The position numbers and the translations under genes were made by a program. Source: a virus (lineage: Duplodnaviria > Caudoviricetes). Taken from it: 64,000 nucleotides of DNA. The notes under the pieces are model-generated. The model saw nothing but the letters and a program-made list of their open reading frames with translations, was not told where the DNA came from and made no database searches. The first letter of the stretch is position 1; the number at the start of each line of letters is the position of its first letter. Location of the stretch: the IMG/VR virus record IMGVR_UViG_3300010391_000186, positions 1,947 through 65,946 of that record; one strand, given 5' to 3'. This document shows, one piece after another, positions 286 through 27,579 of this stretch.

Positions 286-294
286 GGAGAATAA

Positions 295-615
295 ATGGAA
301 CAAAAATCGGGGAGTGAGTTTTCATTCCCCGTCGCAAAAACACCGCGGCTTGAAACAAGACTGCTAGAACTGCCAAAAGAAATAAAGGATATGGAGATAA
401 AACTTTACAAAACAAAAGCAGGACAAATCAAAGACAACATAAAAATCGAAGAAATCAAAAAAGAAACACCAAATGATTTTCGTTCAAGTCCTAGATATCA
501 AATCTTGAAGGAAAAGCAAGAGAACGTAGAAGAAATTCTTAAACTTGGTGCGATAGAGCTTCGATTTCTGAACAATTACTTTACAGCTTGCAAAGCTGTT
601 TCAAGGATGATATAA
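295..615 (+). CDS. Hypothetical coiled-coil protein
   Basis: 106-aa ORF with AGGAG RBS, tightly packed between neighbours. Confidence 0.6.
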   Translation: MEQKSGSEFSFPVAKTPRLETRLLELPKEIKDMEIKLYKTKAGQIKDNIKIEEIKKETPNDFRSSPRYQILKEKQENVEEILKLGAIELRFLNNYFTACKAVSRMI

Positions 616-1628: not shown

Positions 1629-1789
1629 AAGAAAAGAGAACATGCAGTAAATCTGTAGAATGTAAAATAGTCAAGTGCATTCATCACGGAGAACATACTG
1701 AAACAGAATTCTGTGATGAAATATGTGAAACATTCACAAAAGCAGTCTGCATCAAAATGAACAAAACATTAATTGAAGGATAGGATAAA

Positions 1790-2743: not shown

Positions 2744-2980
2744 ATGGCGATTACACTGGAACATTATCAGTCTGTAAGACAACATTTTATTACTCTTCTA
2801 GGCGGAAAATGTGCTGTGTGTGGAACTGTTGAAAGTCTTGAGCTTGATCATATAGTTTCAAATGGTTGGTATGTTGGAAGGGGTCGTGGTCGAGATATTC
2901 GTATGTGGGAATGGTTTGAATCACAAGCTGAAGGAAATCTTCAAATTCTTTGCAGTAAACACAATCAAGAAAAACGTTAA
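2744..2980 (+). CDS. Small HNH endonuclease
   Basis: LGGKCAVCG...LELDHI...NLQILCSKHN. Confidence 0.85.
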   Translation: MAITLEHYQSVRQHFITLLGGKCAVCGTVESLELDHIVSNGWYVGRGRGRDIRMWEWFESQAEGNLQILCSKHNQEKR

Positions 2981-2995
2981 TAGAGGACATATCAT

Positions 2996-3703
2996 ATGGA
3001 AATTACTATGGATTATCGAGAATTTATGGACAATCCACTTATAGTGAACTTGCTTAAAGACAGCGGAAAAAATACAATAATTTCAAAACCACTAGCAGTT
3101 GCAGATTATTTCTTCCCACCAGTTCTAGCTGAACACAAAACACTTATCAATTATATGGATGACGTAACAAACGGTCATATTTTTCAGCAAGCTCAGGACA
3201 TGCTTTACAGCAAAGAAGAGCATCCTGAAATGGAGCTTTACATTCTAATATCTGGGAACATTACAGACATCTTTAAGCAAGTTCGACCACTAAAGATAAA
3301 TGGACAGCAAATCTATGAAAACGGAAGACCTAAATGGGTTCCTGTTCACGCAAATGCAAAAGGACTCATAGCAGCATTTTCATCGCTCAACAGACAAGGA
3401 ATAAAAACTTCTTTTGTTGGGGATCAAGGATTTATGGTTCAAGCACTGCTATATCTCTTCGAAAAATACAACGATGGAAAAGTACGCACATATAATCCAA
3501 TTCGTGCCCCAATAACTAATGAAGACGCAGTGCTTACGAACTACATGAGCATAACAGGTGTCGGTGAAGAGAACGCTAAAAAGCTCAGAGAAAGATTCCC
3601 TCTACCAAGACAGCTTTACAACGCAGGACTTATTGATTTTGAAGCTATCATGGGATTCCAGCACGGAAGAAGACTATACAATTTCATTAACGGAATAAAG
3701 TGA
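2996..3703 (+). CDS. ERCC4/XPF-like nuclease with C-terminal helix-hairpin-helix
   Basis: ADY...AEHKTLINY (variant of GDY...ERKxxxD) and HhH SITGVGEENAKKL. Confidence 0.75.
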   Translation: MEITMDYREFMDNPLIVNLLKDSGKNTIISKPLAVADYFFPPVLAEHKTLINYMDDVTNGHIFQQAQDMLYSKEEHPEMELYILISGNITDIFKQVRPLKINGQQIYENGRPKWVPVHANAKGLIAAFSSLNRQGIKTSFVGDQGFMVQALLYLFEKYNDGKVRTYNPIRAPITNEDAVLTNYMSITGVGEENAKKLRERFPLPRQLYNAGLIDFEAIMGFQHGRRLYNFINGIK

Positions 3704-3848
3704 AACTATGACAACATATTACCTAAAAACAAAAGATGTATCAGCAAACAATCATAATCTAAACGACTTAGAAGAAATTAGGGCGTACATCAAGAAAAAT
3801 TATAAATCACTTGATGTTTCAATAGTAAAAAGACAATATATTTCATAA

Positions 3849-3876
3849 AAGTCTTAAACTTTAAATAACTATAAAA
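3849..3876 (+). promoter_or_regulatory. AAGTCTTAAAC motif plus TATA box
   Basis: Motif at 3849-3859, TATA-like ctataaaa about 20 nt from the motif start, ATG at 3912. Confidence 0.6.
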
Positions 3877-3911
3877 ATAAAAAGCAATATTAAGAGTATG
3901 AGGACACAGCT

Positions 3912-4217
3912 ATGGAAAAAAATAACTACAAAGTAAACATAAAAATAGATAGGACGCTATTTATTGAAGGAGTAAATAATTCAGAAGAAGCGATTGAAAA
4001 TGCAACGCTATATCTTGATAATCTTCTTCTTGCAGGAGTCAAACCTTATGCAAGAGCAATCGCAGTAAAAACAAGCACAACAGAACAATCAGAAGAAATA
4101 CATGTTGAACAACTTGAAGAAGTAAAGAAACTATCTCTGCAGATTTCAAACATTTTCAACAAAGCAGAATTAAAACTGCTTGCAGAAGACATAAAATTCT
4201 ATATTGGAAGCGATTAG
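3912..4217 (+). CDS. Hypothetical protein
   Basis: ORF preceded by the promoter motif and a GAGGACA RBS. Confidence 0.6.
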   Translation: MEKNNYKVNIKIDRTLFIEGVNNSEEAIENATLYLDNLLLAGVKPYARAIAVKTSTTEQSEEIHVEQLEEVKKLSLQISNIFNKAELKLLAEDIKFYIGSD

Positions 4218-4556
4218 ATGACGAATAAAGTTGTAAAAACAGCAGAAGTAGAAGTTATTCCTCTTCGTGAACTTCGTTTTGGAGATTTTATTCTATGGGG
4301 AAGATATAAAGTTCTTATTGTCAGTATTGATTATCAAAACAAAATCGTTACAGCAGCGCATCCAGTAGATACACTTAAACAAGTTTCTTCATATTATAGA
4401 ATCATAAACTGCATTGAAGAAAGACCAAATACAACATGTCCCGGGTGCGGAAAAATCATAGAAAGCCTTACTGATTCTGAATTTGATGAATTCTGTGCTC
4501 CAAGATGCAAAGATCTATACGAAGAAGGTATTTCAAAAGGAGAAATTTATGGTTGA
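4218..4556 (+). CDS. Hypothetical protein with C-terminal Zn-ribbon
   Basis: CPGC...FCAPRC. Confidence 0.55.
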   Translation: MTNKVVKTAEVEVIPLRELRFGDFILWGRYKVLIVSIDYQNKIVTAAHPVDTLKQVSSYYRIINCIEERPNTTCPGCGKIIESLTDSEFDEFCAPRCKDLYEEGISKGEIYG

Positions 4557-5586
4557 AGAATCAAAATCAGTTCAATGGTGTGATAAATACGAACCACATA
4601 CGCTTGATGAATATATTGGTCATGAAGAGCTTGTTGCAGCATTTAAAGCATATGTAGCAATACATCATATTCCAAATATGACTCTTGGAGGAGTGCCCGG
4701 CACAGGAAAAACAGCATTGGTCAAATGCTTCGCCCACGATCTTGGATACTTAGGATGGGATTTAGAAAATCCTGGAAAGTGGTATCCAATGCAAGCAGGA
4801 CAGTTTCAATTTCTTGATGCATCAAACGAACGTGGAATAGACATGGTACGTACCACACTCAAAGGACTTTCAGAAGATCCAACACTTGGCGGAGAAGTGC
4901 GTCTAATATGCTTGGATGAAGGAGATAATGTTACAGGAGACGCTCAAGCTGCAATGCGTGGAGTCATACAAAACAGTTCAAGCAATTCTCGTTTCATTCT
5001 CACAGGAAACTATCCAGAAGAATTTATTGCTGCAATCAATAGCAGATGTCCACTCAAAACAGTTCCACCACTTACAAGAAACGACCTAGCTACAATGATA
5101 AAGCGCATACAAATATCTGAGAAGTTTACTATAACAGACGAAGCTACCGAGTTTCTAATCACTGTTGCAAATGGTGATATGCGCTTAATGATAAATAAAT
5201 TGCAGGACGCAGCAATAACATCAGCTATGAACATAACAAAAAAAGATATAGGTTCAACTGTTGCAGACATTGAAATAGCAAAGAAAATCATAGAAGCAGC
5301 ACTTACAGACTTCAATAAAGCAAGAGAAATCCTCATAACAATTTATCAAAGCACAAAGAATCCAGGAGATATTCTCTCGAAGCTATACGATGCCACGTAT
5401 CTTGTTCCTTTTGTTCAGGATGCACAGCGCAACGAAATCCTTCAGCTCAAGCTTCGAACAAGAATGTCAGATGTTGATTATTACTTGTCTCAGAAAGGAA
5501 TAAATCACATAGTCCAGCTTGACGCTCTTCTAAGCTATATCAGGCTTCTTCCTTATATTTCAGTAAAGTGTCCAAAGGTGAGTTAA
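4549..5586 (+). CDS. rfcS: Replication factor C small subunit (clamp loader)
   Basis: WCDKYEP, GVPGTGKT, DASNERGID, LDEGD, AAMR and SRC motifs. Start chosen at the ATG after AGGAG. Confidence 0.92.
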   Translation: MVEESKSVQWCDKYEPHTLDEYIGHEELVAAFKAYVAIHHIPNMTLGGVPGTGKTALVKCFAHDLGYLGWDLENPGKWYPMQAGQFQFLDASNERGIDMVRTTLKGLSEDPTLGGEVRLICLDEGDNVTGDAQAAMRGVIQNSSSNSRFILTGNYPEEFIAAINSRCPLKTVPPLTRNDLATMIKRIQISEKFTITDEATEFLITVANGDMRLMINKLQDAAITSAMNITKKDIGSTVADIEIAKKIIEAALTDFNKAREILITIYQSTKNPGDILSKLYDATYLVPFVQDAQRNEILQLKLRTRMSDVDYYLSQKGINHIVQLDALLSYIRLLPYISVKCPKVS

Positions 5587-5587
5587 T

Positions 5588-6001
5588 ATGGAAAGTATGG
5601 ATGGAATAAATGAACTAAATAATGAAATTGCAATGCAAAGACAGCACGAAAACAGATGTTCAACTTGCAACGGAACAGGTCGTGTCATAATAAAGTTTCC
5701 AGTTCCTTTTTCAAATGGAGAACAGCTTGAAGAAAGCGAAGAACAGTGTCCTGTTTGTAATGGAAAATCAAAAAAAGAAAAAGTATATACACTTCGCTTC
5801 CCGCCCGGAGAAGATGTGCCACAGCACACAGATAAAGAAGTCCTGAAAAAGATTCTATATAAAAGAGATTATGATGGATGCACAAATCAAGAAATTTCTG
5901 ATGAACTTAAAAAGATAAGACTAGGATTAAGTTCAGCATTCTTCCCAGAAGAAAAAGAAATCATAATACAAGCTGAAAAACGTCTTACAAGGAGAGATTA
6001 A
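5588..6001 (+). CDS. DnaJ-type zinc-finger protein
   Basis: CSTCNGTG and CPVCNGK. Confidence 0.6.
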   Translation: MESMDGINELNNEIAMQRQHENRCSTCNGTGRVIIKFPVPFSNGEQLEESEEQCPVCNGKSKKEKVYTLRFPPGEDVPQHTDKEVLKKILYKRDYDGCTNQEISDELKKIRLGLSSAFFPEEKEIIIQAEKRLTRRD

Positions 6002-6002
6002 A

Positions 6003-6555
6003 ATGATACTTTCAGATGTAGATATCAAAAATTACATAAAACTTGAAAAGCTCAAAATAAGTTCACCAAGAAGTCATTTACTTAATACTGATGGACTTTC
6101 AATACAACAGAATGGACTGGATTGCAGAATAGGAGATACAATAGCAGTAGATATCAAACTTGAAGAAGGAACTGTTATTGATACTCATAATCAGGAATCC
6201 ATTAACAGCAGATTCATGCAAATGGAATTTGAGAACTTTGTTGTCCCACCACACACGAATATCCTTCTTGTTACAGAAGAAGAATTTGAATTTCCTGATG
6301 ACTTAATGGCATTCTGTGGACTGCGTTCTTCGGTTGCAAGAAATGGATTCATTGCACCGATAACGATTGTAGATGCCGGCTTTAAAGGAACATTAACAAT
6401 AGAACTCAATAATGGTGGACACAATCCTATTAGAATATATAGAGGAGACAGATTCTTGCATGTAATATTTGCAAAGACAAACAGTCCAGTTCCCCTATAA
6501 TGGATTCTACACAGGACAAAGAATAGTTCATCTTCCAAAAACACTGGGTGATTAA
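6003..6555 (+). CDS. dcd: dCTP deaminase, interrupted by a +1 frameshift at CCCC 6492-6495
   Basis: MILSD, LRSSVARNG and VDAGFKGTLTIEL motifs. The 0-frame stops at 6500, but the +1 frame gives the canonical tail PYNGFYTGQ ending at 6555, directly before the next ATG. Confidence 0.85.
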
Positions 6556-6695: not shown

Positions 6696-7493
6696 ATGAT
6701 TCCTCCACTTGCAGAAGCAACAGTATCAACAACAATGCTGAATCTATATGATGGATGTAATCATGCCTGTAAACTGAAATATGTTGATAAACAAACCGCA
6801 GTCCATATTGATGATACTCCACTTAGAGTCGGAAAATCAGGACACAAAATATTTGAACATTTCTACGAAAAGTTAGATCTCAACGCACCAGATATCGATA
6901 AAGAATTCAAAGACAAAATTACAGCAAGTGCATTCCAGCACTGGGATAGGACTATTGACAGTAGAAAGCGTGAAGAAATAGAACCAGCATTCTTTATCTG
7001 GCTCAAGTATGAACTTGAAAGATATTTCATCTATAAGAAACAAAATAGACTTGATATCTTTAAGCCAATTGAAGTTGAACAGGACTTAACAGACTATAAA
7101 AATCGAATGAGAGCAGTATCGGATAAACGCTGCATAGGAATCTCTGGAATTAACTATGTTATGGACTACAAGTTTGACAAAAAGCTGCCAGCAGGTAGAA
7201 ATTTCACAAACATTCTATCAGAAATAGATATGAAGTACAAAATCCAAGCAGCACTCAACGCTCAAGTTCTAAAAGCACACGATCATCCGATTGATGGATT
7301 CTACTTTCAGTTTGTTCGCTATCCAGAAAAACTGTTACCTATACCGCTCAACAGACAGCTTTTTGATGAAGTAAATAACTTGATCAATAAGCTTAGAACT
7401 GATACAGTATTCGAAAAGAATAAAAAGTCTTGCTTCTTATGCAATTTTAAGATGTATTGCAACATGCGAGAAGCGAGTATAAACTGTCTATAG
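6696..7493 (+). CDS. Cas4-like PD-(D/E)xK exonuclease with Fe-S cluster
   Basis: N-terminal Cys (GCNHAC), D...DYK catalytic motif, C-terminal CFLCNFKMYC. Confidence 0.8.
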   Translation: MIPPLAEATVSTTMLNLYDGCNHACKLKYVDKQTAVHIDDTPLRVGKSGHKIFEHFYEKLDLNAPDIDKEFKDKITASAFQHWDRTIDSRKREEIEPAFFIWLKYELERYFIYKKQNRLDIFKPIEVEQDLTDYKNRMRAVSDKRCIGISGINYVMDYKFDKKLPAGRNFTNILSEIDMKYKIQAALNAQVLKAHDHPIDGFYFQFVRYPEKLLPIPLNRQLFDEVNNLINKLRTDTVFEKNKKSCFLCNFKMYCNMREASINCL

Positions 7494-7868
7494 GAAATGA
7501 TAATATGGATTTAAAAATTGGAGATGAAGTTCTTTTTAGAAAAGAAACAAATCTATATAAAGGCAGAATAAAATCTATATTCAAAAATAAAATTGAAATA
7601 GATGATGATACTATCGAGCTTGTTATAGCAGCAGTTTCAAAGGGTACTGTTGCTGATAATATATCTTTTATATGCAAAAACAAAGGTGAAATATCATGAA
7701 GATAATATGGGAAGAAACAGACACAGCAATCAAAGAAAAATATGATGCACGCAAAAAGCACTTCGTAAGCAACAAACATCTTATCAAACCGAAAATGGTT
7801 TCTGAAGATGAATCTTTTGTGATGGCATTAATAGCATCATACTGGACGATGTGGGTGCAGGAAAAGAA

Positions 7869-8264
7869 ATGACAAAGTATCATTTTATTAATATTGAATA
7901 CAGAACAGAATTCAATCAAGCAGTTATACTTCTATGGGGAAGAGATATAGAAACACTCGAAAAGAAAATGTTCAGAGTAATTGGATTCAGACCACGTTTT
8001 TATGTTCCAGAAAATGAACCAGTTCCACAGTCAAGCGCAATAACAGAAATAAAAAGTGGATTTACTTCTATATATGGTGAAAAATTCAAACAGCTATTCA
8101 CACAAATTCCTTCTGACATTCCGAAACTACGTCAATACTTCACGAAAACATGTCAAGCGGATATACCATTTACAAGAACATTTCTAATTGAATCCGGTAT
8201 CCTTACGAAGTTTACTACACCAGATAAAGATGAAATACATTTTAACGAACTAACAGGAGAGTAA
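7869..8264 (+). CDS. Stand-alone N-terminal domain of family B DNA polymerase
   Basis: ILLWGR...GFRPRFYV...QADIPFTRTFLIE, matching the PolB NTD signature (GFxPYFY; EADIPFxxRFLID). Confidence 0.85.
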   Translation: MTKYHFINIEYRTEFNQAVILLWGRDIETLEKKMFRVIGFRPRFYVPENEPVPQSSAITEIKSGFTSIYGEKFKQLFTQIPSDIPKLRQYFTKTCQADIPFTRTFLIESGILTKFTTPDKDEIHFNELTGE

Positions 8265-8266
8265 AA

Positions 8267-10603
8267 ATGAAAACACAATTTAGTCCTATGGCAATACAGA
8301 TCCTAGAGAAAAGATATCTTCTAAAAAACAAAGAAGGAACAATAACAGAAACACCGGAAGAACTGCTTGAAAGGGTAGCAAAATATGTTTGTAGTGAAGA
8401 TAAAAAGCTTCTTGCAGCAGTGTTGAAGCTGATGAAAGAATTAAGATTTCTTCCTAACACACCAACACTTATGAACGCAGGAACGACAAACATGCTTTCT
8501 GCTTGCTTTGCAATACCAATATCAGATTCTCTTGAATCAATAATACACGAAGCACTCTGGCAGCAAGCAGCGATCCATAAAAAAGGTGGTGGAACTGGAT
8601 TAAATTTTTCTAGTCTTAGACCAAAAGGAGACACAATTTCATTAACTGGTGGAGTAACATGCGGAGTATTGTCGTTCATGGAAAACTTTGATACACTGTC
8701 AAAATCCATTCAGCAAGGAGGAAAACGTGCGGGTGCAAACATGTCAATCCTCAGTGTCTATCATCCAGAAATAGAAGAATTCATCAAAATCAAAACAACA
8801 AATAACACTGATTATGAAAATATGAATCTTTCCGTGCTTGTTGATGATGTGTTCATGCTTGCAGTTAAAAACAACAAAACAATATTTCTTTCATTTCCAA
8901 TAAAAAGTGAAAACAAAAGAAGAGAAATAAGGGCGAAATATCTCTGGGAACTAATATGTGATTCTGCTCATAAATGCGGCTGTCCAGGAATCCTGTTTGA
9001 AGATACAATAAATTCTAACAACACGCTAGACAAACATGGATTTCATATCACAACGACAAATCCTTGTGGAGAGCAGCCTTTATTCTGTGGAGAATATAAT
9101 GGAAATATAACTGCGGAAAGCTGCAATCTTGGTTCACTCAATCTTTTAAAATTTGTGAATGACAAAAACAACGGAATGGACTATAAAAAACTAGAAGAAG
9201 CAGTGTTGGTAGCAACAGCTTTTCTGGATCGTGTTATAGACAAAAATGTATATCCTTTCAAATTTATCGAAGAAGGAACAAAACTTACAAGAAAGATTGG
9301 TCTAGGAGTAACAGGATTTTCCGATTATCTAATAAAAATTGGAGTTCCTTACAGTTCTGAAAAAGCAATAACCGAAGCAGAAGAAATAATGAAATTCATA
9401 ACAAACAAATCACATCTTGAAAGCTTTGATCTTGCTGCTGAGTTTGGAAAATATCCACTTGCAGAACTTGTTGGGGATAAAAAAAGAAATAATATGTGTA
9501 CCACTATTGCTCCAACAGGAACTATCGGAAGACTCATGCTAGGACACGGATATTCTTCTGGAATAGAACCACCATTTGCACTATATATGAAAAGTAACAT
9601 TATCGAAACAACAATCGAAGATGGAATTCATCCGTTGCTTCTAGAAAAGATAAATGAAGTATGTTTGGGTCTACCAGATAGAAAAAAAGAAACTATCGAT
9701 TTAATAAAACAGAATGGAAGCAGCATACAGAATATCCCGTTACTTAGCGCAGAAATAAAAAGATTGTTTCTAACAGCTAATGAAATTCCTATTGAACAAC
9801 ACATTAAAATCCAAGCAGCGTTCCAGAGCTATACTGATAACGCAGTATCAAAAACAATAAATCTAAATAATAAAGCAACTGTAGAAGATGTTTCAAAAGC
9901 GTTCATGCTTGCATATGATCTTGGATGTAAAGGAACCACCATATACAGAGACGGAAGTAAAAGCAATCAGGTTCTAAATTCTATCAAGGAAACACATAAA
10001 ACAACAAGCGTAGAATCATTTAAAGATCTAGCACCAAGACCAGCAATACTTCCAGCATTAAGCTTCGTGAAACAGACCGCTTGCAACACATTATTTATAA
10101 ATCCTACATATATGGGCGTTATAGATAAAAGCGCCCTTGAGCATTTCATAGATGCTCATGGAGGATGCCTTGCTATGAGAACAGGTCTTGCTATGTCTGT
10201 TTCGCTATATCAAAGAATAATAGAGGAAATAAATCCAGAGTATGCAAGAAATGCACTGCAAATAGTAACAACGCATCTACTTAAAGTAGAATGTCCTGTC
10301 TGTAAGATGAGAATAAGAGATGAAAAACAAAAGATAAAAAACGGAGAGACTGTTATAGATCCAGTGGATTCCATAAGCTGTCCAAACGCTCTTGCTCAAG
10401 TTATGGAATATATGCTCAAACACAAAGTTGAAACATATATTGACGGAATCAAGTTTCAAGCGGAACTATATAAGATTAAATCATACGAAGAAATAGAAGC
10501 AGTAGATAAAACAAAGTGCCTAGACTGCGGGACAGTCCTCATCAAACAAGGAGGATGCTCTTCATTCCAATGCCCAAAATGCATGACCGGGGGGTGTAAT
10601 TAA
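8267..10603 (+). CDS. nrdJ: Class II (adenosylcobalamin-dependent) ribonucleotide reductase
   Basis: PNTPTLMNAG, SACF, GGGTG, TNPCGEQ, SCNLGSLNL, TIAPTGT, SKTIN and YRDGS motifs. C-terminal SCP and Zn-ribbon. Confidence 0.95.
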   Translation: MKTQFSPMAIQILEKRYLLKNKEGTITETPEELLERVAKYVCSEDKKLLAAVLKLMKELRFLPNTPTLMNAGTTNMLSACFAIPISDSLESIIHEALWQQAAIHKKGGGTGLNFSSLRPKGDTISLTGGVTCGVLSFMENFDTLSKSIQQGGKRAGANMSILSVYHPEIEEFIKIKTTNNTDYENMNLSVLVDDVFMLAVKNNKTIFLSFPIKSENKRREIRAKYLWELICDSAHKCGCPGILFEDTINSNNTLDKHGFHITTTNPCGEQPLFCGEYNGNITAESCNLGSLNLLKFVNDKNNGMDYKKLEEAVLVATAFLDRVIDKNVYPFKFIEEGTKLTRKIGLGVTGFSDYLIKIGVPYSSEKAITEAEEIMKFITNKSHLESFDLAAEFGKYPLAELVGDKKRNNMCTTIAPTGTIGRLMLGHGYSSGIEPPFALYMKSNIIETTIEDGIHPLLLEKINEVCLGLPDRKKETIDLIKQNGSSIQNIPLLSAEIKRLFLTANEIPIEQHIKIQAAFQSYTDNAVSKTINLNNKATVEDVSKAFMLAYDLGCKGTTIYRDGSKSNQVLNSIKETHKTTSVESFKDLAPRPAILPALSFVKQTACNTLFINPTYMGVIDKSALEHFIDAHGGCLAMRTGLAMSVSLYQRIIEEINPEYARNALQIVTTHLLKVECPVCKMRIRDEKQKIKNGETVIDPVDSISCPNALAQVMEYMLKHKVETYIDGIKFQAELYKIKSYEEIEAVDKTKCLDCGTVLIKQGGCSSFQCPKCMTGGCN

Positions 10604-13436: not shown

Positions 13437-14873
13437 ATGACAATAACACTTCGACCAAGATATATGTATAGAGATTCCTGTAAAGAATGTAAAGGACACA
13501 GATCAAACTGTGGTGGAAAGAATGTTTGCGCTCCAGTAAAAAAGAAGCTGCGATCATACAACGGAATAAGACTTACAGCAGACGGTTTTGACTGTGCTTT
13601 ACCTGTCACGATAGACAGTCATAGTCAATGTTCATATGCTTGTATATACTGTTTCAGTCCTAATATCAGTGGACATAGAGAAGGTGAAGACCTTCTTACA
13701 GGACAAACATCACTTAACGATATCGAAAACATGTTCTCTGGAAAAGGTAAAAACATGGAAAATCTGTTCACAGCACTGAAGTTTAAAAACAGAATGAATG
13801 GTTATCCTTGTCCGGTGCAACTTGGAGGACTTACAGATCCACTTGATAACATCGAAAGAAATCAGGGATGGTTCTTAGAGTTTGTTCGTCTTGCTCAAAA
13901 ATACAAGCAACCAGTCCGTATAAGCACAAAAGGAAATATGTTTCTAGAACAAGAATACTTGGATGCTGTAGCAAAGACGCCAGAGCTATTCTGGGTAAAC
14001 TTTTCAATTATTAGTCCAGATGATAAACTGATGAAACTTGTTGATATCGGGGCACCACCACCTTCAGAAAGAATTCAGTGTATGAAAAACTTAACTGATA
14101 TCAAAGTTAAAACCGGACTTCGCTTCAGACCGATTATTCCTGGAATCAGCGATGCTACAAAAGATTATCCAAAAGCATTCTCGGACTTAATAAATATGGC
14201 TGCTGATGCTGGTGCAAGAAACATTTCATACGAAGTTGTATTTCTTCCACTACTTGATCCTAAAGCAGTTCCAAAATGGGAAGCAATAGAAAAATTAACA
14301 GGAATTCCGTATTGGGAGATATATCGAAAGTTTGGAAAGAAGCTACCATGTAATAGAGCATCATATATCTGGACAGAACAGATAATGTTCGCTATACATA
14401 GAGCAGCAAAGAAAAGAGAAATGTTCGTTGGTATTAGTGATCCTTTATGGAAGCAACTAAATGATGGTGGATGCTGCTGTGGAATTCCTCCAACAGATCC
14501 AGTATTCGGAAACTGGCAAAGAGAAAGCGCAACAAATCAGTTGATTGAAGCACGAGATACAGGAAAGCTTCTAACATCAAAAGACGTAATTCCAGCATGG
14601 GCATTAATGACAAAAGCAGATCAAATGTATCGACCACCGATAGGTCCCGCTGGTGCTACATTCCGTCAATACTTTATGTGGGGAGATAAAATGCAGGAAC
14701 AGTGGAATGATTTAACCTGTGAAAGAGGTCCCTTACAATACTTCCAGGGTGCGCTTAGACCAGTTGAACGTAAAGAAGACGGAGAAGTTGTTTTCAAGTA
14801 TGTTGGTCTTGAACGTAGAAATCCAAAAGAAACATCATACTGGAATATTAAGGAAGATGAAGATGAAAAGTGA
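13437..14873 (+). CDS. Radical SAM enzyme (spore photoproduct lyase-like clade) with extra Cys clusters
   Basis: CSYACIYC, DPLDNIER, RISTK, N-terminal CKEC..C..C and internal GCCCG. Confidence 0.85.
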   Translation: MTITLRPRYMYRDSCKECKGHRSNCGGKNVCAPVKKKLRSYNGIRLTADGFDCALPVTIDSHSQCSYACIYCFSPNISGHREGEDLLTGQTSLNDIENMFSGKGKNMENLFTALKFKNRMNGYPCPVQLGGLTDPLDNIERNQGWFLEFVRLAQKYKQPVRISTKGNMFLEQEYLDAVAKTPELFWVNFSIISPDDKLMKLVDIGAPPPSERIQCMKNLTDIKVKTGLRFRPIIPGISDATKDYPKAFSDLINMAADAGARNISYEVVFLPLLDPKAVPKWEAIEKLTGIPYWEIYRKFGKKLPCNRASYIWTEQIMFAIHRAAKKREMFVGISDPLWKQLNDGGCCCGIPPTDPVFGNWQRESATNQLIEARDTGKLLTSKDVIPAWALMTKADQMYRPPIGPAGATFRQYFMWGDKMQEQWNDLTCERGPLQYFQGALRPVERKEDGEVVFKYVGLERRNPKETSYWNIKEDEDEK

Positions 14874-15053: not shown

Positions 15054-15449
15054 ATGAATCCAAAATTCAAGGGATGGGATACAAAAAGAAATAAAATGTA
15101 TTCAGCATCGGAACTAGGTATTGACGAACTAACTATTAATCCAGATGGTCGAGGATTTGTAAATGTAAGCAGCACGGATCAAAAACTAAGTCAATACATG
15201 CAGCATATAATTCCTCTTCAGTTTACTGGACTGAAAGACAAAAACAACACAGAAATATATAAAGGAGATGTATTACAATCAAACGACATGAGTATTCATG
15301 TTGTGGAATATAACATATGCAGATGGTCAGCACGTTTAATAAGAAGAAGAATGGAAAGGTGGCCTGCTCAATTCCTAGACTGTGATTATATGGGATGGAT
15401 AGTAATCGGAAACATATATGAAAATCCAGAATTAATCAAAGGTGTTTGA
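15054..15449 (+). CDS. YopX-family phage protein
   Basis: KFKGWD...LQFTGLKDKNNTEIYKGD...VIGNIYENPEL. Confidence 0.9.
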   Translation: MNPKFKGWDTKRNKMYSASELGIDELTINPDGRGFVNVSSTDQKLSQYMQHIIPLQFTGLKDKNNTEIYKGDVLQSNDMSIHVVEYNICRWSARLIRRRMERWPAQFLDCDYMGWIVIGNIYENPELIKGV

Positions 15450-15451
15450 AT

Positions 15452-16639
15452 ATGGAAAGCATGTTTGATGAACCACTATATGAACAAGAATGTAAATGGG
15501 CACTTATTGAAGCTCCAATACCAAACGCACCTGAAGGAAAATATATCTCTCAGATACCAAGCCCAAACAATCTTCTTACAGTATCAAGCGCATTGAAAGC
15601 AAGTGGACATACAGATATAAAATTATATCAGTTCTTACAAGAAAGACATCCAAGAATAGTCGTTGCAGAGAACATCGTTTACAATCTAGGTGAAGCTACA
15701 TGCATGGATTATCTCTACAACTATGCTCTAGAATATCTTGAATTACTAAGAAGAACAAATCCACATTCAAAAATATACTTAACTGGATATCATGCATGGT
15801 TGCACCTTGAAAACTTCAACGACTTCATAGTAACTTCACCACAGTCTTTTGAAAATGATATTGTTGGAACTGTATCAACAACAGAATGGCATAATGACTG
15901 GTCAGTAAACGACTGGGAATTTATGAAATCCAAAGTGAGTTCAACAAGCAGTGGAATTAGATGCACTTTTAGATCAACAAGAAGATGTCCGCATCACTGC
16001 AGAATGTGTCCAGTAAATACCGTATATGGTCACACCAATATTCGATATTCTACCGAATGGGTCATGGAAGAAATAAAAACACTATACAACAAATACAATA
16101 TCCGTGAAATAGGATTTCTTGATGATAACCTGTTCTATAATCGTGTTTGGGGAAAAGAACTTCTCAACAAAATAATAGCAGCAAACTTAAAAGGTCTTAA
16201 ATTTACATTTGAAGAAGGACTGGATGTTCCAACAGCACTTGATGAAGAACTAATAATACTTCTAAAGAGAGCGCATTTTCATCATATAAAACTTGGTGTT
16301 GAGGCACTTGATTCAAAAACACTTGACTTTATACAAAAGCCTTATAGAGATCCAGAAGATGCTATCAAAGCGATAAAACTGCTTCAAAAACATGAACTTA
16401 ATCCAACCTGCTTTATCTGTATTGGATTCCCAACAAACACTGAAGAAAGCATTCAGCATGATATTGATATACTTGTAAATTTAAAAGTGAAACTAAGAGT
16501 TCAAATTTTATGGGCATATCCCGGTATTGATTTTGCAGGAAAATCTCTATCACATGAAAAACTAAAACACTTCCAAAAAGAAGCAATGGATAGAACTGGA
16601 AGTAGTTCGTGGAGCCACAAACATGATAAGTCTATTTGA
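15452..16639 (+). CDS. B12-binding-type (class B-like) radical SAM enzyme
   Basis: N-terminal B12-binding-like region, STRRCPHHCRMC, GFLDDNLF, LGVE and IGFP motifs. Confidence 0.8.
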   Translation: MESMFDEPLYEQECKWALIEAPIPNAPEGKYISQIPSPNNLLTVSSALKASGHTDIKLYQFLQERHPRIVVAENIVYNLGEATCMDYLYNYALEYLELLRRTNPHSKIYLTGYHAWLHLENFNDFIVTSPQSFENDIVGTVSTTEWHNDWSVNDWEFMKSKVSSTSSGIRCTFRSTRRCPHHCRMCPVNTVYGHTNIRYSTEWVMEEIKTLYNKYNIREIGFLDDNLFYNRVWGKELLNKIIAANLKGLKFTFEEGLDVPTALDEELIILLKRAHFHHIKLGVEALDSKTLDFIQKPYRDPEDAIKAIKLLQKHELNPTCFICIGFPTNTEESIQHDIDILVNLKVKLRVQILWAYPGIDFAGKSLSHEKLKHFQKEAMDRTGSSSWSHKHDKSI

Positions 16640-17729
16640 TGAACCGTTATCTGAAGATGAACCTTGTAGAATATATGGTAACAAAATCATTTTCACAAAA
16701 ACTTTTTCAGAACAATCAGAAACAGAAAAAGAAGTTTCGTTACAGTATATTCTAGACAATGTCTTCGCAGGAGACTTCTGGTATGATTATATCAACGAAG
16801 AATTTTCACACGAAGTCAGAAAACTAGATATGTTCAAACCAAAAGAAATTCTTCATGGAACAACAATAAGCAGAAATAATCTTTGTTCACCTGTTGCAAG
16901 TAGTTTTCATCCACACATCTTGGAAATCAATAATGGAAAGTATAATTCTCCAAATGAAACTTTAGAAGATACAGTTCATCTTAAAAAATGTATTTCAAAT
17001 TATCTTAAAATTACTTCTGGGTCAATAAATTGTTCCGATGCTATACATATATTGAGAACAGCTCGGAAAACGCAAATGGTGAGTAATTTCCGACCTACTG
17101 TTGCAAAGCTAATATACGAAACGTATGGTAACAATGGCTCAGTTCTAGATCCTTGTATGGGTTATGGAGGAAGATTGCTAGGAGCATGGTGTAGTAATAT
17201 CAGCAGCTACACAGGAATAGATCCATGCACAAAAACTTTTGACGGAAATATAAAACTTCAAAACCGTTTGATAGAACTTACTTCTTACAAAGGAAGTATC
17301 ACAGAAATTATACCCAGACCAACAATAATACTACACAAACTTCCATTCGAAGACTTTACCACTAACGAAAAGTTTGACCTTGTATTTACATCTCCACCAT
17401 ACTTCAACACAGAGAAATATTCTAATGAAGATACGCAGTCATGGAAAAGATATCCAACATATTACGTCTGGGTGGATAAATTCCTTGAAATTCTTATCCA
17501 CAACGCACATACATTTCTAAAACCGGGCGGAGTCTTTGCAATAAATATGAAAGATGATCCACTTGCAAAATACAACATCTGGCGAGATGTAATCCGTCTA
17601 AGTAAGAAGTATTTCGGAGAACCCGAAACAATATTGTATATGGAAATGCCAGCCCTACCACTGATTAAAAAGAACTGCGCCAACAGCATAAAAGGTGAAC
17701 CGATAGGAATATTCAGGAAGAAATTATGA
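16623..17729 (+). CDS. DNA amino-methyltransferase (m4C/m6A)
   Basis: SAM-binding VLDPCMGYGGRLLG and catalytic FTSPPYF. Confidence 0.85.
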   Translation: MISLFDEPLSEDEPCRIYGNKIIFTKTFSEQSETEKEVSLQYILDNVFAGDFWYDYINEEFSHEVRKLDMFKPKEILHGTTISRNNLCSPVASSFHPHILEINNGKYNSPNETLEDTVHLKKCISNYLKITSGSINCSDAIHILRTARKTQMVSNFRPTVAKLIYETYGNNGSVLDPCMGYGGRLLGAWCSNISSYTGIDPCTKTFDGNIKLQNRLIELTSYKGSITEIIPRPTIILHKLPFEDFTTNEKFDLVFTSPPYFNTEKYSNEDTQSWKRYPTYYVWVDKFLEILIHNAHTFLKPGGVFAINMKDDPLAKYNIWRDVIRLSKKYFGEPETILYMEMPALPLIKKNCANSIKGEPIGIFRKKL

Positions 17730-19786
17730 AGTATCTTAGAAGAAATATTCTGGACATTGAAGTCAAAGTTGATAAAGAATTTCCTCACCCAGAACAAGCA
17801 AGATATCCATTCAGTGCAATCACAATATGGGATTCTTTCACAAATCATTACTATTCTCTTGTTGTTCGTGATTCACCTCTACCACTTCAGAAAGTTGTAA
17901 TGAGTCCAGAATGGGATGTCTATTATTGTAACAACGAAGTGATTCTTGCAACAAATTTCGTCAAGCTCACTCAAATGCTTAATCCAGATACGTGGGAAGG
18001 ATTTTTTAGCAAAACATTTGACTTTCCATATATTTGTAATCGCTTGCGAAACATTGAAATTGATCCAAATCTATTATCACCAGGAGGACATTTCACTTGT
18101 AAAAACAGACCAAGTTCTTCTGGACTCCATTTGCTTGACATAGTTGAAGCTGACAAAAAGTTCAAACAGCGTTCAAGTTATTCCTTAAAATTAATAGCAG
18201 AAGAAGAAGATCTTCCAGTCAAGAAGCTAGAATTTGATATAGTTGGAAACAACTACACCCCCGAACAGCTTGCAGCATATAATAAAATAGATGTTGAAGT
18301 TCCTCTCGCTCTTGATAATAAAATGCAGCACATAAAACGATATGTTAATCGCTGGCAACTTGCAGGACTTGAAAGCATAGACAAAGCAATGTCAAATTCA
18401 ATTATTGTTGATACTGTAATGCTTCGAGAAGCTAAAAAAGCAGGAATACTTCTTCCGTCAAAACCAGACAAAACAGAACAAGCGCAAACAGAATCAGAAG
18501 CTGAAGACATAACTGGTGGAATGGTGTTTGAACCAATTATTGGGATTCACGATTGGGTAGCGGATGATGATCAGTCTAGATTTTATCCAAACTTAATATT
18601 CTTACTACGAATGTCTCCTGAAAATATTTCATCAGAAGGAACTCTAATTTCAGCAAATGGCACACGATTTATAGATAATACAGAAGCATTCTTACCACGT
18701 ATAATTAGACATTTCTTTAAAGAACGAGATAGAATTCAAGCAGAAAAAGCACTGCTTACACCCGACAATCCGTATTATTGGAAGCTGCACGAAGAAGATG
18801 AGAATGCAAAATTCCTTCTTAATAGTGTTGCAGGAGTCTTTGGACAACCATCTTTCCGTCTATACGAACCACGTATTATAGACAGCATAACAACATCTGG
18901 TCAATACTTAATGATAACAGGAAAAGCATATCTTGAATCACTAGGTGTTCAGGTTGTTTATGGAGATACAGATGCGCTTCATAGAAAATTGATGGGAGTA
19001 ACAAATATTGAAGAAGCAATAAAGCAAGGTAAAGAAATAAACGCAAAGCTTAATGAAAAGCTTCCAATATGGGCACAAGAAAAGTTTAATGTAAAAGATG
19101 CTTCCTCTATCAAAATCGTTTTTGAGAAAGTATTTAGACGCATCATGTATATCCCCAACGAAAAAGGAAAGCCTGTTAAAAAGCGATATGCAGCACGTCT
19201 AGTCTACGAAAAAGGAAAGATAACAGATCAGATTTATATTCGTGGGTTTGAAACAAGACGTTCTGATGCATCCATAATATCAAAAGACTTGCAGAACAAT
19301 ATCTTCAAGAAAATTCTATACGCAGAAGATGTTGAAGAAGTAAATAAAGAAATAATCACATACATTAGAGACTTAATTGCACAATTTCCAGATAGATCTT
19401 TATCAGAAATTGCAATCCCGTGCGGATTCTCAAAGGATCTTTCAGCATACGGTGGACTCAATAAAAATGGTGGAAAGAAAGGATTAGATCCAGAAGTTCG
19501 TGGAGCCATCTATAGCAACACGCATCTTTTCACAAATTTTGGATCAAACACAAAAGCAAAAATGCTATATATCAATAAAATAGAAGGAATAAATTCCATA
19601 GGAGAACCTTTACCACATACTGAAGTTATCGTTTTTGAAGATGAAGCAAAGCTACCAAAAGTTGAAGTAAACTACGAAAAGATGATAGATGCAACAGTAA
19701 GAAAGAAAATCGAAAGAATTCTCTCTGTTGCAGGAATAGACTGGAACCAAATAGTAGGTGAAGAACAATCAATGTTCAATTTCTAA
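17726..19786 (+). CDS. polB: Family B DNA polymerase (exonuclease and polymerase domains, lacking the NTD)
   Basis: ExoI DIEV, ExoII FDFPY, ExoIII YNKID. Motif A DQSRFYP, motif B KFLLNSVAG, motif C YGDTD, KKRY, GFETRRSD. C-terminal PIP-like EQSMFNF. Confidence 0.95.
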   Translation: MKYLRRNILDIEVKVDKEFPHPEQARYPFSAITIWDSFTNHYYSLVVRDSPLPLQKVVMSPEWDVYYCNNEVILATNFVKLTQMLNPDTWEGFFSKTFDFPYICNRLRNIEIDPNLLSPGGHFTCKNRPSSSGLHLLDIVEADKKFKQRSSYSLKLIAEEEDLPVKKLEFDIVGNNYTPEQLAAYNKIDVEVPLALDNKMQHIKRYVNRWQLAGLESIDKAMSNSIIVDTVMLREAKKAGILLPSKPDKTEQAQTESEAEDITGGMVFEPIIGIHDWVADDDQSRFYPNLIFLLRMSPENISSEGTLISANGTRFIDNTEAFLPRIIRHFFKERDRIQAEKALLTPDNPYYWKLHEEDENAKFLLNSVAGVFGQPSFRLYEPRIIDSITTSGQYLMITGKAYLESLGVQVVYGDTDALHRKLMGVTNIEEAIKQGKEINAKLNEKLPIWAQEKFNVKDASSIKIVFEKVFRRIMYIPNEKGKPVKKRYAARLVYEKGKITDQIYIRGFETRRSDASIISKDLQNNIFKKILYAEDVEEVNKEIITYIRDLIAQFPDRSLSEIAIPCGFSKDLSAYGGLNKNGGKKGLDPEVRGAIYSNTHLFTNFGSNTKAKMLYINKIEGINSIGEPLPHTEVIVFEDEAKLPKVEVNYEKMIDATVRKKIERILSVAGIDWNQIVGEEQSMFNF

Positions 19787-19994: not shown

Positions 19995-20489
19995 ATGATA
20001 CATAAAGTAAACGGAATACTAGAAATAAATCATGTTTGTCGTGGATACTGTAAGCTTCCTTATCCTAATCATACAGAAGGATGTCCAAACTTCAATAAAA
20101 ATATAGAATGTCCTCCAAAATCATCCGTGGTGGAAGATGTTTTTGATTTAAATCGCGAACTGTTCTTTGTTGTTGAAGAATTCAATTTGAAAGAACATAT
20201 TACACATATGAAGTTTAATCATCCACCGTGGACAGAATTACAGCTTAGAAATCTTTTATACTGGCAAGGCGGTGTCCGAAAAAGACTTAAAGAAAAAGTA
20301 GAACAGTTTATGCAGCACGATATGATTTATACGCTGCTGCCAGAGTCTATGGGTGTAATGGTAATTAACACAGCACTTAAACTCAGAATACCAATTGAAA
20401 GAAATCCAAAAGAAAAAGTGTTTAAAATCGCTCTTGTTGGATATCCAAAAATAGAGCAGCGTAATGAGGAATCAATGTTTGAATTTTAA
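19995..20489 (+). CDS. DUF2284-like Cys-rich metal-binding protein
   Basis: C..YC...GCPNF...CPP and PESMGV..INT. Ends with EESMFEF. Confidence 0.6.
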   Translation: MIHKVNGILEINHVCRGYCKLPYPNHTEGCPNFNKNIECPPKSSVVEDVFDLNRELFFVVEEFNLKEHITHMKFNHPPWTELQLRNLLYWQGGVRKRLKEKVEQFMQHDMIYTLLPESMGVMVINTALKLRIPIERNPKEKVFKIALVGYPKIEQRNEESMFEF

Positions 20490-21050: not shown

Positions 21051-22028
21051 ATGCTAGTTGATAAATATGCATCACAAACACTAAATGATATCAAGCTGGA
21101 CGATAAAGCTATAGATACTATTATTGCTTGGATCAATAGCTGGAATCGTGGATTACCTTCACAGGAAAAACCAGCTCTTCTTTTAACAGGATTCCCAGGA
21201 ACAGGAAAGACAACTGCTGCTCGCTGCATATGTAATGATGCTGAATGGCTTCTTCTAGAACTCAATGCTTCCGATTCACGAAGAAAAGAAGATTTATCTA
21301 AATTTACTCCTGAAAGATCGCTTATGGGAAACATTACTTGCATACTATTTGATGAAGCAGATTCTTTTGGGGATAAAAAAGAAGATAAAGAAAAAAATGA
21401 AAGTAGTGAAATCAAAGAAAAAAGCGAAAGGAACAAAGATAAAACAGGAATTCCTTATGTTGTAGCAATGATAAGAGAAAGGAGATTTCCAATAATACTT
21501 ACTGCAAACAACGCTTTTAAAGTACCAAAAGAAATTAAAGCACTGTGTGAATCATTGCAGATCTATCGTCCTTCTGTAAATGCATTAAAAGCTTATCTAT
21601 ATGATATTTGTAAGAAGGAAGGACTCAACCCGACAAACGATATTCTTAATGCAGCAGCGCAATGCCAAGACTATAGAATGGGTCTAAGCATGATAGAGAA
21701 CAATATAATTCTATCTAAAAATATCATAAAAACTGGAATTGAGGAAACTGTTAGAAATCTATTGCTGAATAATGAAGCAAATATAGAAAACCCAAAAAAG
21801 ATTCTATACAATCTAGATGCAAACATTTCAAGATTATACAGTCCATTAGAACTATATGAAACATATAATATTCTTTCTCGTGTTGATATTCTTAGAAGAC
21901 GTGGTCAAACAAAACACGCTATAACATTATTGAAAACTATTCCAAAAACAACACTTGAAGAATTTGAATTGATTCCCCCAATTTATATTGAAAGAAAGAA
22001 AGCTGTGATCAAAAATGATAACTTGTGA
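21051..22028 (+). CDS. rfcL: Replication factor C large subunit
   Basis: LVDKY, GFPGTGKT, ELNASDSR, FDEAD and PIILTAN motifs. Confidence 0.88.
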   Translation: MLVDKYASQTLNDIKLDDKAIDTIIAWINSWNRGLPSQEKPALLLTGFPGTGKTTAARCICNDAEWLLLELNASDSRRKEDLSKFTPERSLMGNITCILFDEADSFGDKKEDKEKNESSEIKEKSERNKDKTGIPYVVAMIRERRFPIILTANNAFKVPKEIKALCESLQIYRPSVNALKAYLYDICKKEGLNPTNDILNAAAQCQDYRMGLSMIENNIILSKNIIKTGIEETVRNLLLNNEANIENPKKILYNLDANISRLYSPLELYETYNILSRVDILRRRGQTKHAITLLKTIPKTTLEEFELIPPIYIERKKAVIKNDNL

Positions 22029-24263: not shown

Positions 24264-24938
24264 ATGAATCTAACACAAAAAGATATTGAAAAAGGAAAGC
24301 GCATACTTAAATTTGAAAAACTTTCAGAAGTAACTTCAGATTCTGTCTTTGCTGCTGGAATATACTGCATATTATCATCACGAGAATTCTTCAAAAAGCA
24401 AGTTCAAGTCTATCATAATTTAGAAATAAATGAAATGATAACACCAAAATCGATACTTGCCGATACGAAAAAACTGCGTGAATGTGTTGCTCATATTCGT
24501 GCTCCAAATCAAACACACGATAGACTTATTGGATATGCATACTGGTGGTCTCATTCTGATATTCCAAAGCGTCTTATAAAAGACGCAAATAATGGACACG
24601 ATAATGGAATGTTCCTTAGGAATAAACTAGCAGTAGAAGTTCCCGGGGTTGGTCTTAAAATTGCATCATTGATCCTAATCAAAGCAGGATACGAAAACGT
24701 TTCTGCGCTTGATGTCTGGCTTCTACGTTGGCTCAAGGATAAGTTTGGATTTATTCCTAGTGGAGGAAAAGAAAACATTACGAATCATAAAGAGTATATT
24801 AAAGCGGAAAAGCTACTCGAACCCATAGCAGAAGAATTCAATGCAACTCAAGCACTAACCCAATGCTCAATATGGGGCAAGTCTGCAAATTGGATGAGTC
24901 ATTATCAAAAACAGCCTGAAGAATTTCGAGTTGATTAA
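24264..24938 (+). CDS. HhH-GPD N-glycosylase/DNA lyase (archaeal Ogg2-like)
   Basis: CILSS...RNKL...VPGVGLKIAS...GYENVSALDVWLLR...Y...E. Confidence 0.75.
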   Translation: MNLTQKDIEKGKRILKFEKLSEVTSDSVFAAGIYCILSSREFFKKQVQVYHNLEINEMITPKSILADTKKLRECVAHIRAPNQTHDRLIGYAYWWSHSDIPKRLIKDANNGHDNGMFLRNKLAVEVPGVGLKIASLILIKAGYENVSALDVWLLRWLKDKFGFIPSGGKENITNHKEYIKAEKLLEPIAEEFNATQALTQCSIWGKSANWMSHYQKQPEEFRVD

Positions 24939-26691: not shown

Positions 26692-27579
26692 ATGATAAAG
26701 AAGCCCATGCTTGCAGCAACGCTCGAACCAGAAGATCTTAGAACTGTCATATATCCTGTTTTCTGCACCCCAAAACTTGATGGGATACGCTGCTTAAAAA
26801 ACGAAGGAAGAGCAGTAACACGCAAGTTTAAACCCGTTCCAAATACATTTATAAGAACAACTATAGAAAAGTTTGCACTTGAAGGAATGGATGGAGAAAT
26901 CATAATTGAAGGAATGAACTGGAATGAACGTTCTTCAGCTATTATGTCAGAAGACGGTGAACCAAATTTCACATACATGGTCTTTGATTACTGTCAGGAT
27001 CCCTCTGAAGGATATAACAATCGTATGAGAAATCTATTTGGCTGCATACATGAATTCAAGTTTCCTCATATAAACTGTCTTTTCCCTGTTCAAATAAATA
27101 ATGAAGCTGAACTGCTTGTATTTGAAACACAGTGTTTATCAGAAGGACATGAAGGAGTCATGCTGCGTTCTCCAAGCGGTCCCTATAAGTTTGGGAGATC
27201 TACGCTTAAAGAAAGATATCTAATGAAGTTCAAGCGTTTCACTGATGGAGAAGCAGTTATTCTCAGTTTATATGAGAAGATGCACAACACCAACAAAGCT
27301 ACAATAGACGCACTTGGTCACAGCAAGCGTTCCTCTCATCTTGCAGGACAAGTCCCCGCTGGGACCCTTGGTGGATTCTGGGTTCGTGATTTAAAGTCTG
27401 GACAAGAATTTGGGGTTGGAACTGGAGAAGGACTTAACGATGAACTTCGTGCTACAGTATGGAACAACCAAACACAATATATCGGAAAGATTCTGAAGTT
27501 CAAATCACAGGAAAGTGGGGCAAAAGATAAACCACGATTTGGAACATTTATTGGATTCCGTGATGAGCGTGATATGTAA
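26692..27579 (+). CDS. lig: Minimal ATP-dependent DNA ligase
   Basis: Motif I KLDGIR, DGEI, FD, EGVMLR, YKFGRS, MKFK and terminal PRF...R. Confidence 0.93.
   Translation: MIKKPMLAATLEPEDLRTVIYPVFCTPKLDGIRCLKNEGRAVTRKFKPVPNTFIRTTIEKFALEGMDGEIIIEGMNWNERSSAIMSEDGEPNFTYMVFDYCQDPSEGYNNRMRNLFGCIHEFKFPHINCLFPVQINNEAELLVFETQCLSEGHEGVMLRSPSGPYKFGRSTLKERYLMKFKRFTDGEAVILSLYEKMHNTNKATIDALGHSKRSSHLAGQVPAGTLGGFWVRDLKSGQEFGVGTGEGLNDELRATVWNNQTQYIGKILKFKSQESGAKDKPRFGTFIGFRDERDM

Follow-up and report, generated by a model that had tools for sequence, protein, structure and literature searches.

We analyzed a family B DNA polymerase (PolB) encoded in a stretch of viral DNA of 64,000 nucleotides, hereafter the window, which corresponds to bases 1947-65946 of the 65,946-bp IMG/VR virus record IMGVR_UViG_3300010391_000186. 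In this enzyme the tyrosine of motif B, a textbook fidelity determinant of B-family replicases, is replaced by alanine (Ala369). Comparison with relatives indicates that loss of this Tyr is real, that it is rare but recurs in nature, and that the site varies freely in the clade of the window polymerase. The explanation towards which we lean, by no large degree, is that of an active replicase with a remodelled base-pair pocket, in which the motif-B Tyr may have become dispensable.

The polymerase and its motifs

The polymerase open reading frame (ORF; coordinates in Table 1) matches Pfam DNA_pol_B (PF00136; E-value 3.7e-25, 89.1 bits for a cut-off of 23), DNA_pol_B_exo1 (PF03104; E-value 7.2e-09, 35.8 bits for a cut-off of 23) and PHROG 262 (E-value 1.4e-83). 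Its best matches of solved structure, obtained with phmmer, are the archaeal PolBs 5mdn_A (E-value 9.4e-27), 4ahc_A and 1qht_A, which align from exonuclease to thumb with the motifs in register (E-values 9.4e-27 to 1.8e-25). Unlike the window polymerase, these archaeal enzymes have their N-terminal domain in the same chain and carry Gln-x-x-x-Lys, N[AS]xYG and S/A-L/M-Y-P.

Direct reading of the DNA confirmed the motif B given by an initial annotation of the window, KFLLNSVAG (K362-G370, 18809-18835), in which Ala369 is encoded by GCA at 18830-18832. In phmmer alignments to the three solved archaeal PolBs, A369 falls under the Tyr of N[AS]xYG; D358 (codon gat at 18797) falls under the Gln situated four residues before the Lys, and the replacement of this upstream Gln by Asp was thus also correctly described. 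Motif B retains K362, N366, S367 and G370 and has Ala in place of Tyr, and membership of family B stands. Motif A reads DQSRFYP, as had been stated. D282 is a metal ligand and Y287 the steric gate, R285 takes the place of the usual Ser and F286 that of the usual Leu; D282, Y287 and P288 align under the D..(S/A)(M/L)YP of the solved archaeal PolBs. The catalytic Asp residues, the steric-gate Tyr and the exonuclease carboxylates had been described as intact, and they prove to be invariant in the 15 proteins of the window's clade: D10, E12, D99 (the Exo II carboxylate), Y185, D189, D282, Y287, K362, D414, D416, K485, K486 and Y488 are identical in all 15.

The record, which carries direct terminal repeats and is rated 100% complete, has a single PolB locus. 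The polymerase ORF starts nine residues before Exo I, and the N-terminal domain is not in the same polypeptide. A separate ORF of 137 residues, homologous to a PolB N-terminal domain, matches the N-terminal ~120 residues in over 100 of 167 relatives (E-values down to 2.8e-23) and is kept in two related loci, L002 (85% identity) and L003 (40%). It is likely, judging from this homology, that this ORF encodes the second piece of the polymerase, split across genes 9.5 kb apart. Short forms are also seen among outgroup proteins that bear the motif-B Tyr (P0005, P0008, P0010 and P0162), so the split does not track the loss of Tyr.

Motifs A and B among relatives

A HMMER scan of 1.84 billion cluster representatives gave 6004 matches at E <=0.001, the best 150 of which were used, and a word-index search of 5.8 billion proteins added close relatives (20 at E <=1e-30). 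The resulting 167 proteins were aligned to the profile; two fragments without the region were dropped, leaving 165 rows. The column of the motif-B Tyr contains Y 137, F 9, A 5, P 5, S 3, W 2, T 2, V 1 and I 1. Outside the window's clade, Tyr is kept in 136 of 150 relatives and replaced in 14.

The initial annotation had grouped the motif-A and motif-B residues as natural substitutions in the nascent base-pair pocket. What stands out among relatives is the loss of the motif-B Tyr and not motif A, in which the Ser position is occupied by Arg in 54 of the 165 relatives (Ser in 76) and the Leu position by Phe or Tyr in 52 (L 77, Y 30, F 22, M 15). At the upstream Gln position the counts are Q 80, R 26, D 20 and E 10. 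DxxR[FY]YP is thus what a large lineage normally has as motif A, and the motif A of the window polymerase is an ordinary one. Most relatives with Arg and an aromatic residue in motif A still carry the motif-B Tyr.

Among the 14 non-Tyr relatives outside the clade, ten were inspected by eye and look genuine. They have Phe (P0049, P0081, P0097, P0107), Trp (P0118), Ser (P0085, P0163), Thr (P0080), Val (P0119) or Ile (P0127), and motif C is found 54-57 residues downstream in nine of them, none being recognisable in P0127. P0075 and P0132 were rejected as genuine cases, since inteins placed right after the Asn produce artefacts; P0067 and P0123 lie outside this inspection.

A FastTree phylogeny of the 165 rows was built with the trait columns masked. 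Non-aromatic replacements of the motif-B Tyr occur on it in four places: the window's clade, P0119 with P0127, P0085 with P0163, and P0080. Such replacements thus arose at least four times, and all four places lie inside one lineage of 56 rows (support 89; 98 for an inner part of 53 rows), in which Arg or Lys stands for the motif-A Ser and the Leu position is mostly aromatic (Phe or Tyr). In the remaining 109 rows the Tyr is replaced only by Phe or Trp. This distribution suggests that the derived motif A may be a permissive background for Tyr loss, which we offer as a lead, not as a result. A narrow literature search found no description of a natural loss of the motif-B Tyr; we make no claim that it is unpublished.

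Site 369 in the clade of the window polymerase

The clade consists of 15 proteins with 42-100% identity, in which site 369 is Ala in five, Pro in five, Phe in four and Tyr in one. Ala is found in the window protein (P0151) and in P0001, P0152, P0153 and P0154, which are 81-100% identical and all read NSVAG. Pro is found in P0156, P0002, P0157, P0158 and P0004, and Phe in P0159, P0160, P0161 and P0003; the motif strings of the Phe-type P0159 (locus L003) are DMTRFYP and DENIKFLVNSIFG. The single Tyr belongs to P0155 (70% identity), where it is accompanied by a change of Asn366 to His (LHSVYG). Apart from this His, the flanking Asn, Ser and Gly are fixed in the clade. P0158 and P0160 have Ala for the Tyr of motif C (AGDTD).

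A maximum-likelihood tree of 21 rows, with six outgroup rows all bearing Tyr, requires at least five changes at site 369, four of them within the ingroup. The ingroup is arranged as P0004 (Pro), a pair with Phe, then Pro/Pro, Pro with two Phe, and Pro with a group formed by the Tyr protein and the five Ala proteins. To contrast conservation, 70 columns were retained in which conservation among the 150 relatives outside the clade reaches at least 80%. The clade dropped the consensus at six of the 70 (W93F, Y143D, N295R/C, G321A, Y369 and R393Q), and position 369 is the only one of the six with four states. The idea that site 369 is hypervariable was rejected, because 229 of 668 columns also have at least four ingroup changes. 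Loss of constraint at a freely varying site is the best description.

A sequencing slip was also ruled out as the origin of Ala369: NSVAG occurs in five distinct proteins, and the GCA codon is shared with the sister locus L002. This codon is identical in the two loci despite a synonymous divergence of ~0.52. Between the two polymerases the nonsynonymous divergence (dN) is 0.024 and the synonymous divergence (dS) 0.52, giving a dN/dS of ~0.05; the polymerase is under strong purifying selection.

In two members of the clade, P0001 (L002 10001-13228) and P0156, motif C is interrupted between YGD and TD by inteins of ~390 residues that bear homing-endonuclease domains. These are of the LAGLIDADG type, with Pfam PF14528 in both and also PF14890 in P0001; the window copy is intein-free. 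Taken together, the intact catalytic and exonuclease residues, the low dN/dS and the retained inteins fit what would be an essential, active gene.

A proposed remodelling of the base-pair pocket

In the explanation that we favour, the polymerase would be the active replicative enzyme of a virus of ~66 kb, encoded as a core plus a separate gene for the N-terminal domain. In the DxxR[F/Y]YP lineage the nascent base-pair pocket would have a differently built floor, in which an aromatic ring takes the place of the motif-A Leu (F286) and, within the clade, a second one follows the motif-B Lys (F363). If the floor was rebuilt with F286 and F363, the motif-B Tyr, a minor-groove sensor in the RB69 polymerase, would no longer be required, and site 369 would be free to evolve like an ordinary position through Pro, Phe, Ala and Tyr. 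Ala369 would then represent one state of this drift, and neither the radical SAM genes nor the methylase gene nearby would have prompted it. The two Phe residues, the backbone of Gly370 and the still intact proofreading site could jointly keep base selection adequate. A structural precedent is found in passages of PMC2475618, in which the Phe ring of RB69 L415F fits a pre-existing cavity under the pocket and catalytic efficiency is kept.

The comparison with RB69 gp43 was already made in the initial annotation, which cited the engineered changes Y567A and L415F, and its citation agrees with passages of PMC2475618, PMC3564110 and PMC3799440. The two enzymes belong to the same family and share its motifs, although their similarity is low (E-values of ~1e-15 to 1e-17 in a PDB search); A369 stands at the motif-B Tyr, as in Y567A, and F286 at the motif-A Leu, as in L415F. 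In RB69 the nucleotide binding site is described as K560, L415, Y416, L561, Y567 and G568, with Y567 contacting the minor groove through water (parts of PMC3564110), and Y567A belongs to triple and quadruple mutants of relaxed selectivity (parts of PMC3799440). The changes differ in that those of RB69 were engineered, whereas those of the window polymerase are natural and fixed under purifying selection. The window lineage moreover adds R285, D358, F363, N295R, G321A and R393Q.

Several points weigh against a remodelled pocket. An independent-pairs test of motif A against motif B on the 165-row tree gave no informative pair out of six, so a correlation of the two motifs has no statistical support beyond clade membership. 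Most of the lineage combines an aromatic motif A with the motif-B Tyr, so that such a motif A is at best permissive. The compensation of the missing Tyr by F286 or F363 is a proposal drawn from sequence, and an AlphaFold2 model computed with an alignment of 11 rows (A2) has a mean predicted local distance difference test (pLDDT) score of 68.0 and a predicted template modelling (pTM) score of 0.49, with residues 367-384 at a pLDDT below 50, a quality too low near motif B to interpret the pocket. Gene neighbourhoods were read for four clade genomes (those of the window, L002, L003 and the further locus L018) out of the 15 clade proteins, the neighbourhoods of P0152-P0158, P0160 and P0161 lying outside the comparison. 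Finally, L415F and the Y567 substitutions of RB69 both lower fidelity, which makes lower fidelity the default expectation (passages of PMC2475618 and PMC3564110). By analogy, lowered selectivity would be a fair expectation for the window polymerase too, but against this stand the many other changes particular to the lineage and the strong selection on the natural enzymes.

Possible relaxed selectivity

The analogy with RB69 leads to the alternative of a naturally relaxed-selectivity or lesion-tolerant replicase, in which the loss of Tyr and the motif-A Phe would lower base discrimination; we regard it as possible and rather unlikely. On the natural mutator that the initial annotation had also put forward, the computations speak neither way. 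Such an enzyme would ease insertion opposite 8-oxoguanine (8-oxoG) and abasic sites, and could suit a virus without a translesion polymerase and with repair genes. In the window these are represented by an 8-oxoguanine glycosylase-like protein, a ligase, an ERCC4 nuclease and a SplB-like radical SAM protein, and the genome has a single PolB locus. Work on the mutator effect of RB69 Y567A in vivo was reportedly done by Bebenek and colleagues in 2001. A comparable Ala substitution in the active site is that of the yeast Pol delta mutant pol3-Y708A, Y708 being what we take to be the motif-B Tyr. For RB69, passages of PMC2475618 report that L415F misinserts and extends mismatches more, proofreads less, and inserts better opposite 8-oxoG and abasic sites. 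Y567 is presented as important for fidelity in parts of PMC3564110, and Y567A figures in the RB69 mutants used for capturing mismatches in parts of PMC3799440.

The pol3-Y708A strain is viable and replication-impaired, with slow growth, hydroxyurea sensitivity and a mutator phenotype, according to passages of PMC3874155. The same passages attribute the mutator effect almost entirely to recruitment of Pol zeta, on which it depends, and not to errors of Pol delta, which counts against transposing it to relaxed selectivity of the viral enzyme. Unlike this engineered mutant, the viral polymerase gives no such sign of compromise: it is under strong purifying selection and its exonuclease site is intact. 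The history of site 369, with a reversion to Tyr in P0155 and Phe reached twice, resembles neutrality and not selection for one relaxed state.

Neighbouring modification genes

The initial annotation had proposed that the pocket is adapted to a modified deoxynucleoside triphosphate (dNTP) or template made by the products of neighbouring genes, a radical SAM protein and a methylase. We consider this improbable. Modification-type genes do adjoin the polymerase in all four clade genomes read, the methylase-like gene of the window overlaps the polymerase start by 4 nt, and S[ML]F[DEN] peptides are common to the translations of PolB, methylase and radical SAM protein. DNA methylases are, however, commonplace in viral genomes, so that their adjacency says little.

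To compare neighbourhoods we relied on several searches. Viral contigs searched with the window protein gave one locus, and 13 with an alignment (A1), two of which are clade members. When genome contigs were searched with alignment A2, none of 42 stretches was a relative, and a search of the same contigs with P0152 gave only one locus, from a Thermoproteota metagenome-assembled genome, at 23% identity. Metagenome contigs searched with A2 gave nine loci, adding L018 and a fragment, L017.

The sister virus G001, which contains L002, is a record of 68,011 bp that is 96% complete. The two genomes are collinear, proteins of the replication module being ~75-93% identical, and the G001 polymerase is 94% identical with the same NSVAG. 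G001 has counterparts of the SplB-like radical SAM gene (93%) and of the methylase-like gene (90%). By contrast with these two, the class-B-like radical SAM gene was not found in the whole of G001, nor in the virus of L003 (G002). As a positive control, the Radical_SAM family gave two loci in the window virus (G000) and only the SplB-like one in G001, and blastn located a segment of ~1.14 kb (~15491-16629) that is absent in the sister between YopX and the methylase gene (L002 ~8590). NSVAG is thus kept in a sister without the class-B-like radical SAM gene, and the polymerase variant is not linked to that gene. The co-occurrence of NSxAG/RFYP with the radical SAM cluster, which adaptation to its product had led to expect, does not hold in this pair.

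The Phe-type virus G002 has a polymerase 51% identical to that of the window, in a record that is 60% complete. No match to the window's class-B-like radical SAM and methylase-like genes was found in it. Upstream of the polymerase (L003 3004-9860) it has QueD-like and QueE-like genes, FolE, a group-1 glycosyltransferase and an HD protein, and a protein of 459 residues with a weak TGT match in the same cluster; QueC was not found in this 60%-complete record. This gene content suggests a 7-deazaguanine-type DNA modification. This putative naming of the pathway draws on PHROG and Pfam labels and on the phage literature; phage 7-deazaguanine modification was reportedly described by Hutinet and colleagues (2019). 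In the Pro-type locus L018 (38% identity) two ordinary DNA methylases lie downstream of the polymerase, one of the N6_N4 and one of the Dam type. On its upstream side, at 80-6545, are a radical SAM/SPASM gene and genes for glycosyltransferases, methyltransferases and an AglB/STT3 oligosaccharyltransferase, which could form a glycosylation module of the virus or be DNA of the host.

Across these genomes no single modification system goes with the polymerase variant. The modification genes differ among the Ala, Phe and Pro types, and the mildest change, to Phe, accompanies the most elaborate pathway. No TGT/DpdA, FolE, QueC, ThyA-family, ThyX or PurZ-family gene was found in the window virus or its sister, in searches that had working controls. 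The chemistry of the known products points the same way: N6/N4 methylation and 7-deazaguanine would alter the major groove or the Watson-Crick edge, after replication, and not the minor groove read by the Tyr. That the polymerase variant goes with the radical SAM gene beside it is a tempting idea, which these results leave unsupported.

A decaying or non-catalytic paralogue, to which the absence of a near-universal motif-B residue and of an N-terminal domain of its own might point, is scarcely credible for the sole PolB of a complete genome, with metal ligands, steric gate, K362, N366, KKRY and exonuclease residues intact, a dN/dS of ~0.05 and inteins retained in relatives.

Genome context of the window virus

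Table 1. Positions, in the window, of the polymerase features and of other genes
Feature	Position	Strand	Evidence or remark
Family B DNA polymerase core (exonuclease, palm, fingers, thumb)	17726..19786	+	686 residues
Exo I, D10-I-E12	17753..17761	+	invariant in 15/15 clade members, >=99% conserved in outgroup
Exo III, Y185-N-K-I-D189	18278..18292	+	identical in 15/15 clade members
Motif A, DQSRFYP (D282-P288)	18569..18589	+	gat cag tct aga ttt tat cca; column tallies
Motif B, D358-E-N-A-K362-F-L-L-N366-S-V-A369-G370	18797..18835	+	sequence, alignments, codons in relatives
Motif C, YGDTD (Y412-D416)	18959..18973	+	intact
KKRY motif (K485 K486 R487 Y488)	19178..19189	+	sequence, alignment
Separate 137-residue ORF, homologous to PolB N-terminal domain	7851..8264	+	blastp and phmmer
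ERCC4-like nuclease	2996-3703		
RFC small subunit	4483-5586		
dCTP-deaminase/dUTPase-like protein	6003-6500	+	
PD-(D/E)XK nuclease	6696-7493		
Ribonucleotide reductase	8267-10603		
SplB-like radical SAM protein (PA0069/Rv2578c family)	13437..14873	+	NCBIfam NF033668, E-value 8.3e-21, below cut-off
YopX	15054-15449		
Class-B-like (B12-type) radical SAM gene	15446..16639	+	Pfam Radical_SAM, E-value 4.6e-18
SPPY-type DNA methylase-like gene	16623..17729	+	Pfam N6_N4_Mtase, E-value 1.7e-07
RFC-large-like AAA protein	21051-22028		
8-oxoguanine-glycosylase-like protein (Ogg-HhH)	24264-24938		
ATP-dependent ligase	26692-27579		

The replication genes are of archaeal type, and the virus is probably archaeal. 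Among sequencing runs the sequence was traced to one sediment metagenome, present there as contigs, which may be its source. The window also encodes an integrase. Its repair set is unusually rich, with the ERCC4-like and PD-(D/E)XK nucleases, the SplB-like radical SAM protein, Ogg-HhH and the ATP-dependent ligase. Searches of the complete genome for thymidylate synthases of both families gave none, though it does have a dCTP-deaminase/dUTPase-like gene. The class-B-like radical SAM protein has a CxxxCxxC motif and partial NCBIfam matches to the BchE, PhpK and HpnJ types, all far below cut-off. Similar terminal peptides were seen in several translations: the radical SAM protein starts with MNMESMFDEPL (15446-15480) and the methylase with MISLFDEPL (16623-16650), PolB ends with EEQSMFNF (19760-19783) and a downstream protein of 164 residues with NEESMFEF (20465-20486).

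The closest named viral PolBs to that of the window are those of the haloarchaeal tailed viruses HATV-2 (gp46), HRTV-27 and HGTV-1, with tblastn E-values from 1e-49 (HATV-2) to 8e-37, ~25% identity and 98-99% coverage. In contrast to the window polymerase, the PolB of HATV-2 (locus L031) is a single protein of 909 residues with canonical DYASLYP and KQVCNSVYG.

Significance

To our knowledge, all B-family enzymes studied read the minor groove with the motif-B Tyr, and we know of no study of its role other than through engineered mutants. Tentatively, and as a possibility short of an even chance, a natural viral PolB lineage may have abandoned this minor-groove-reading residue, with at least four separate losses on a DxxR[F/Y]YP background. 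Its members would be either enzymes that reach normal accuracy by way of another pocket or the first natural relaxed or lesion-tolerant replicases. The natural Ala, Pro, Phe and Tyr enzymes, on backgrounds that are otherwise 50-95% identical, constitute a comparison series for the contribution of this residue, and could show the share of the Tyr in accuracy, lesion bypass and acceptance of modified nucleotides. Were the relaxed alternative true, these enzymes would offer scaffolds suited as they are to taking up unnatural nucleotides. Retained accuracy would mean that they have an alternative way of checking base-pair geometry; if accuracy is not retained, some viruses would replicate with an intrinsically relaxed B-family enzyme.

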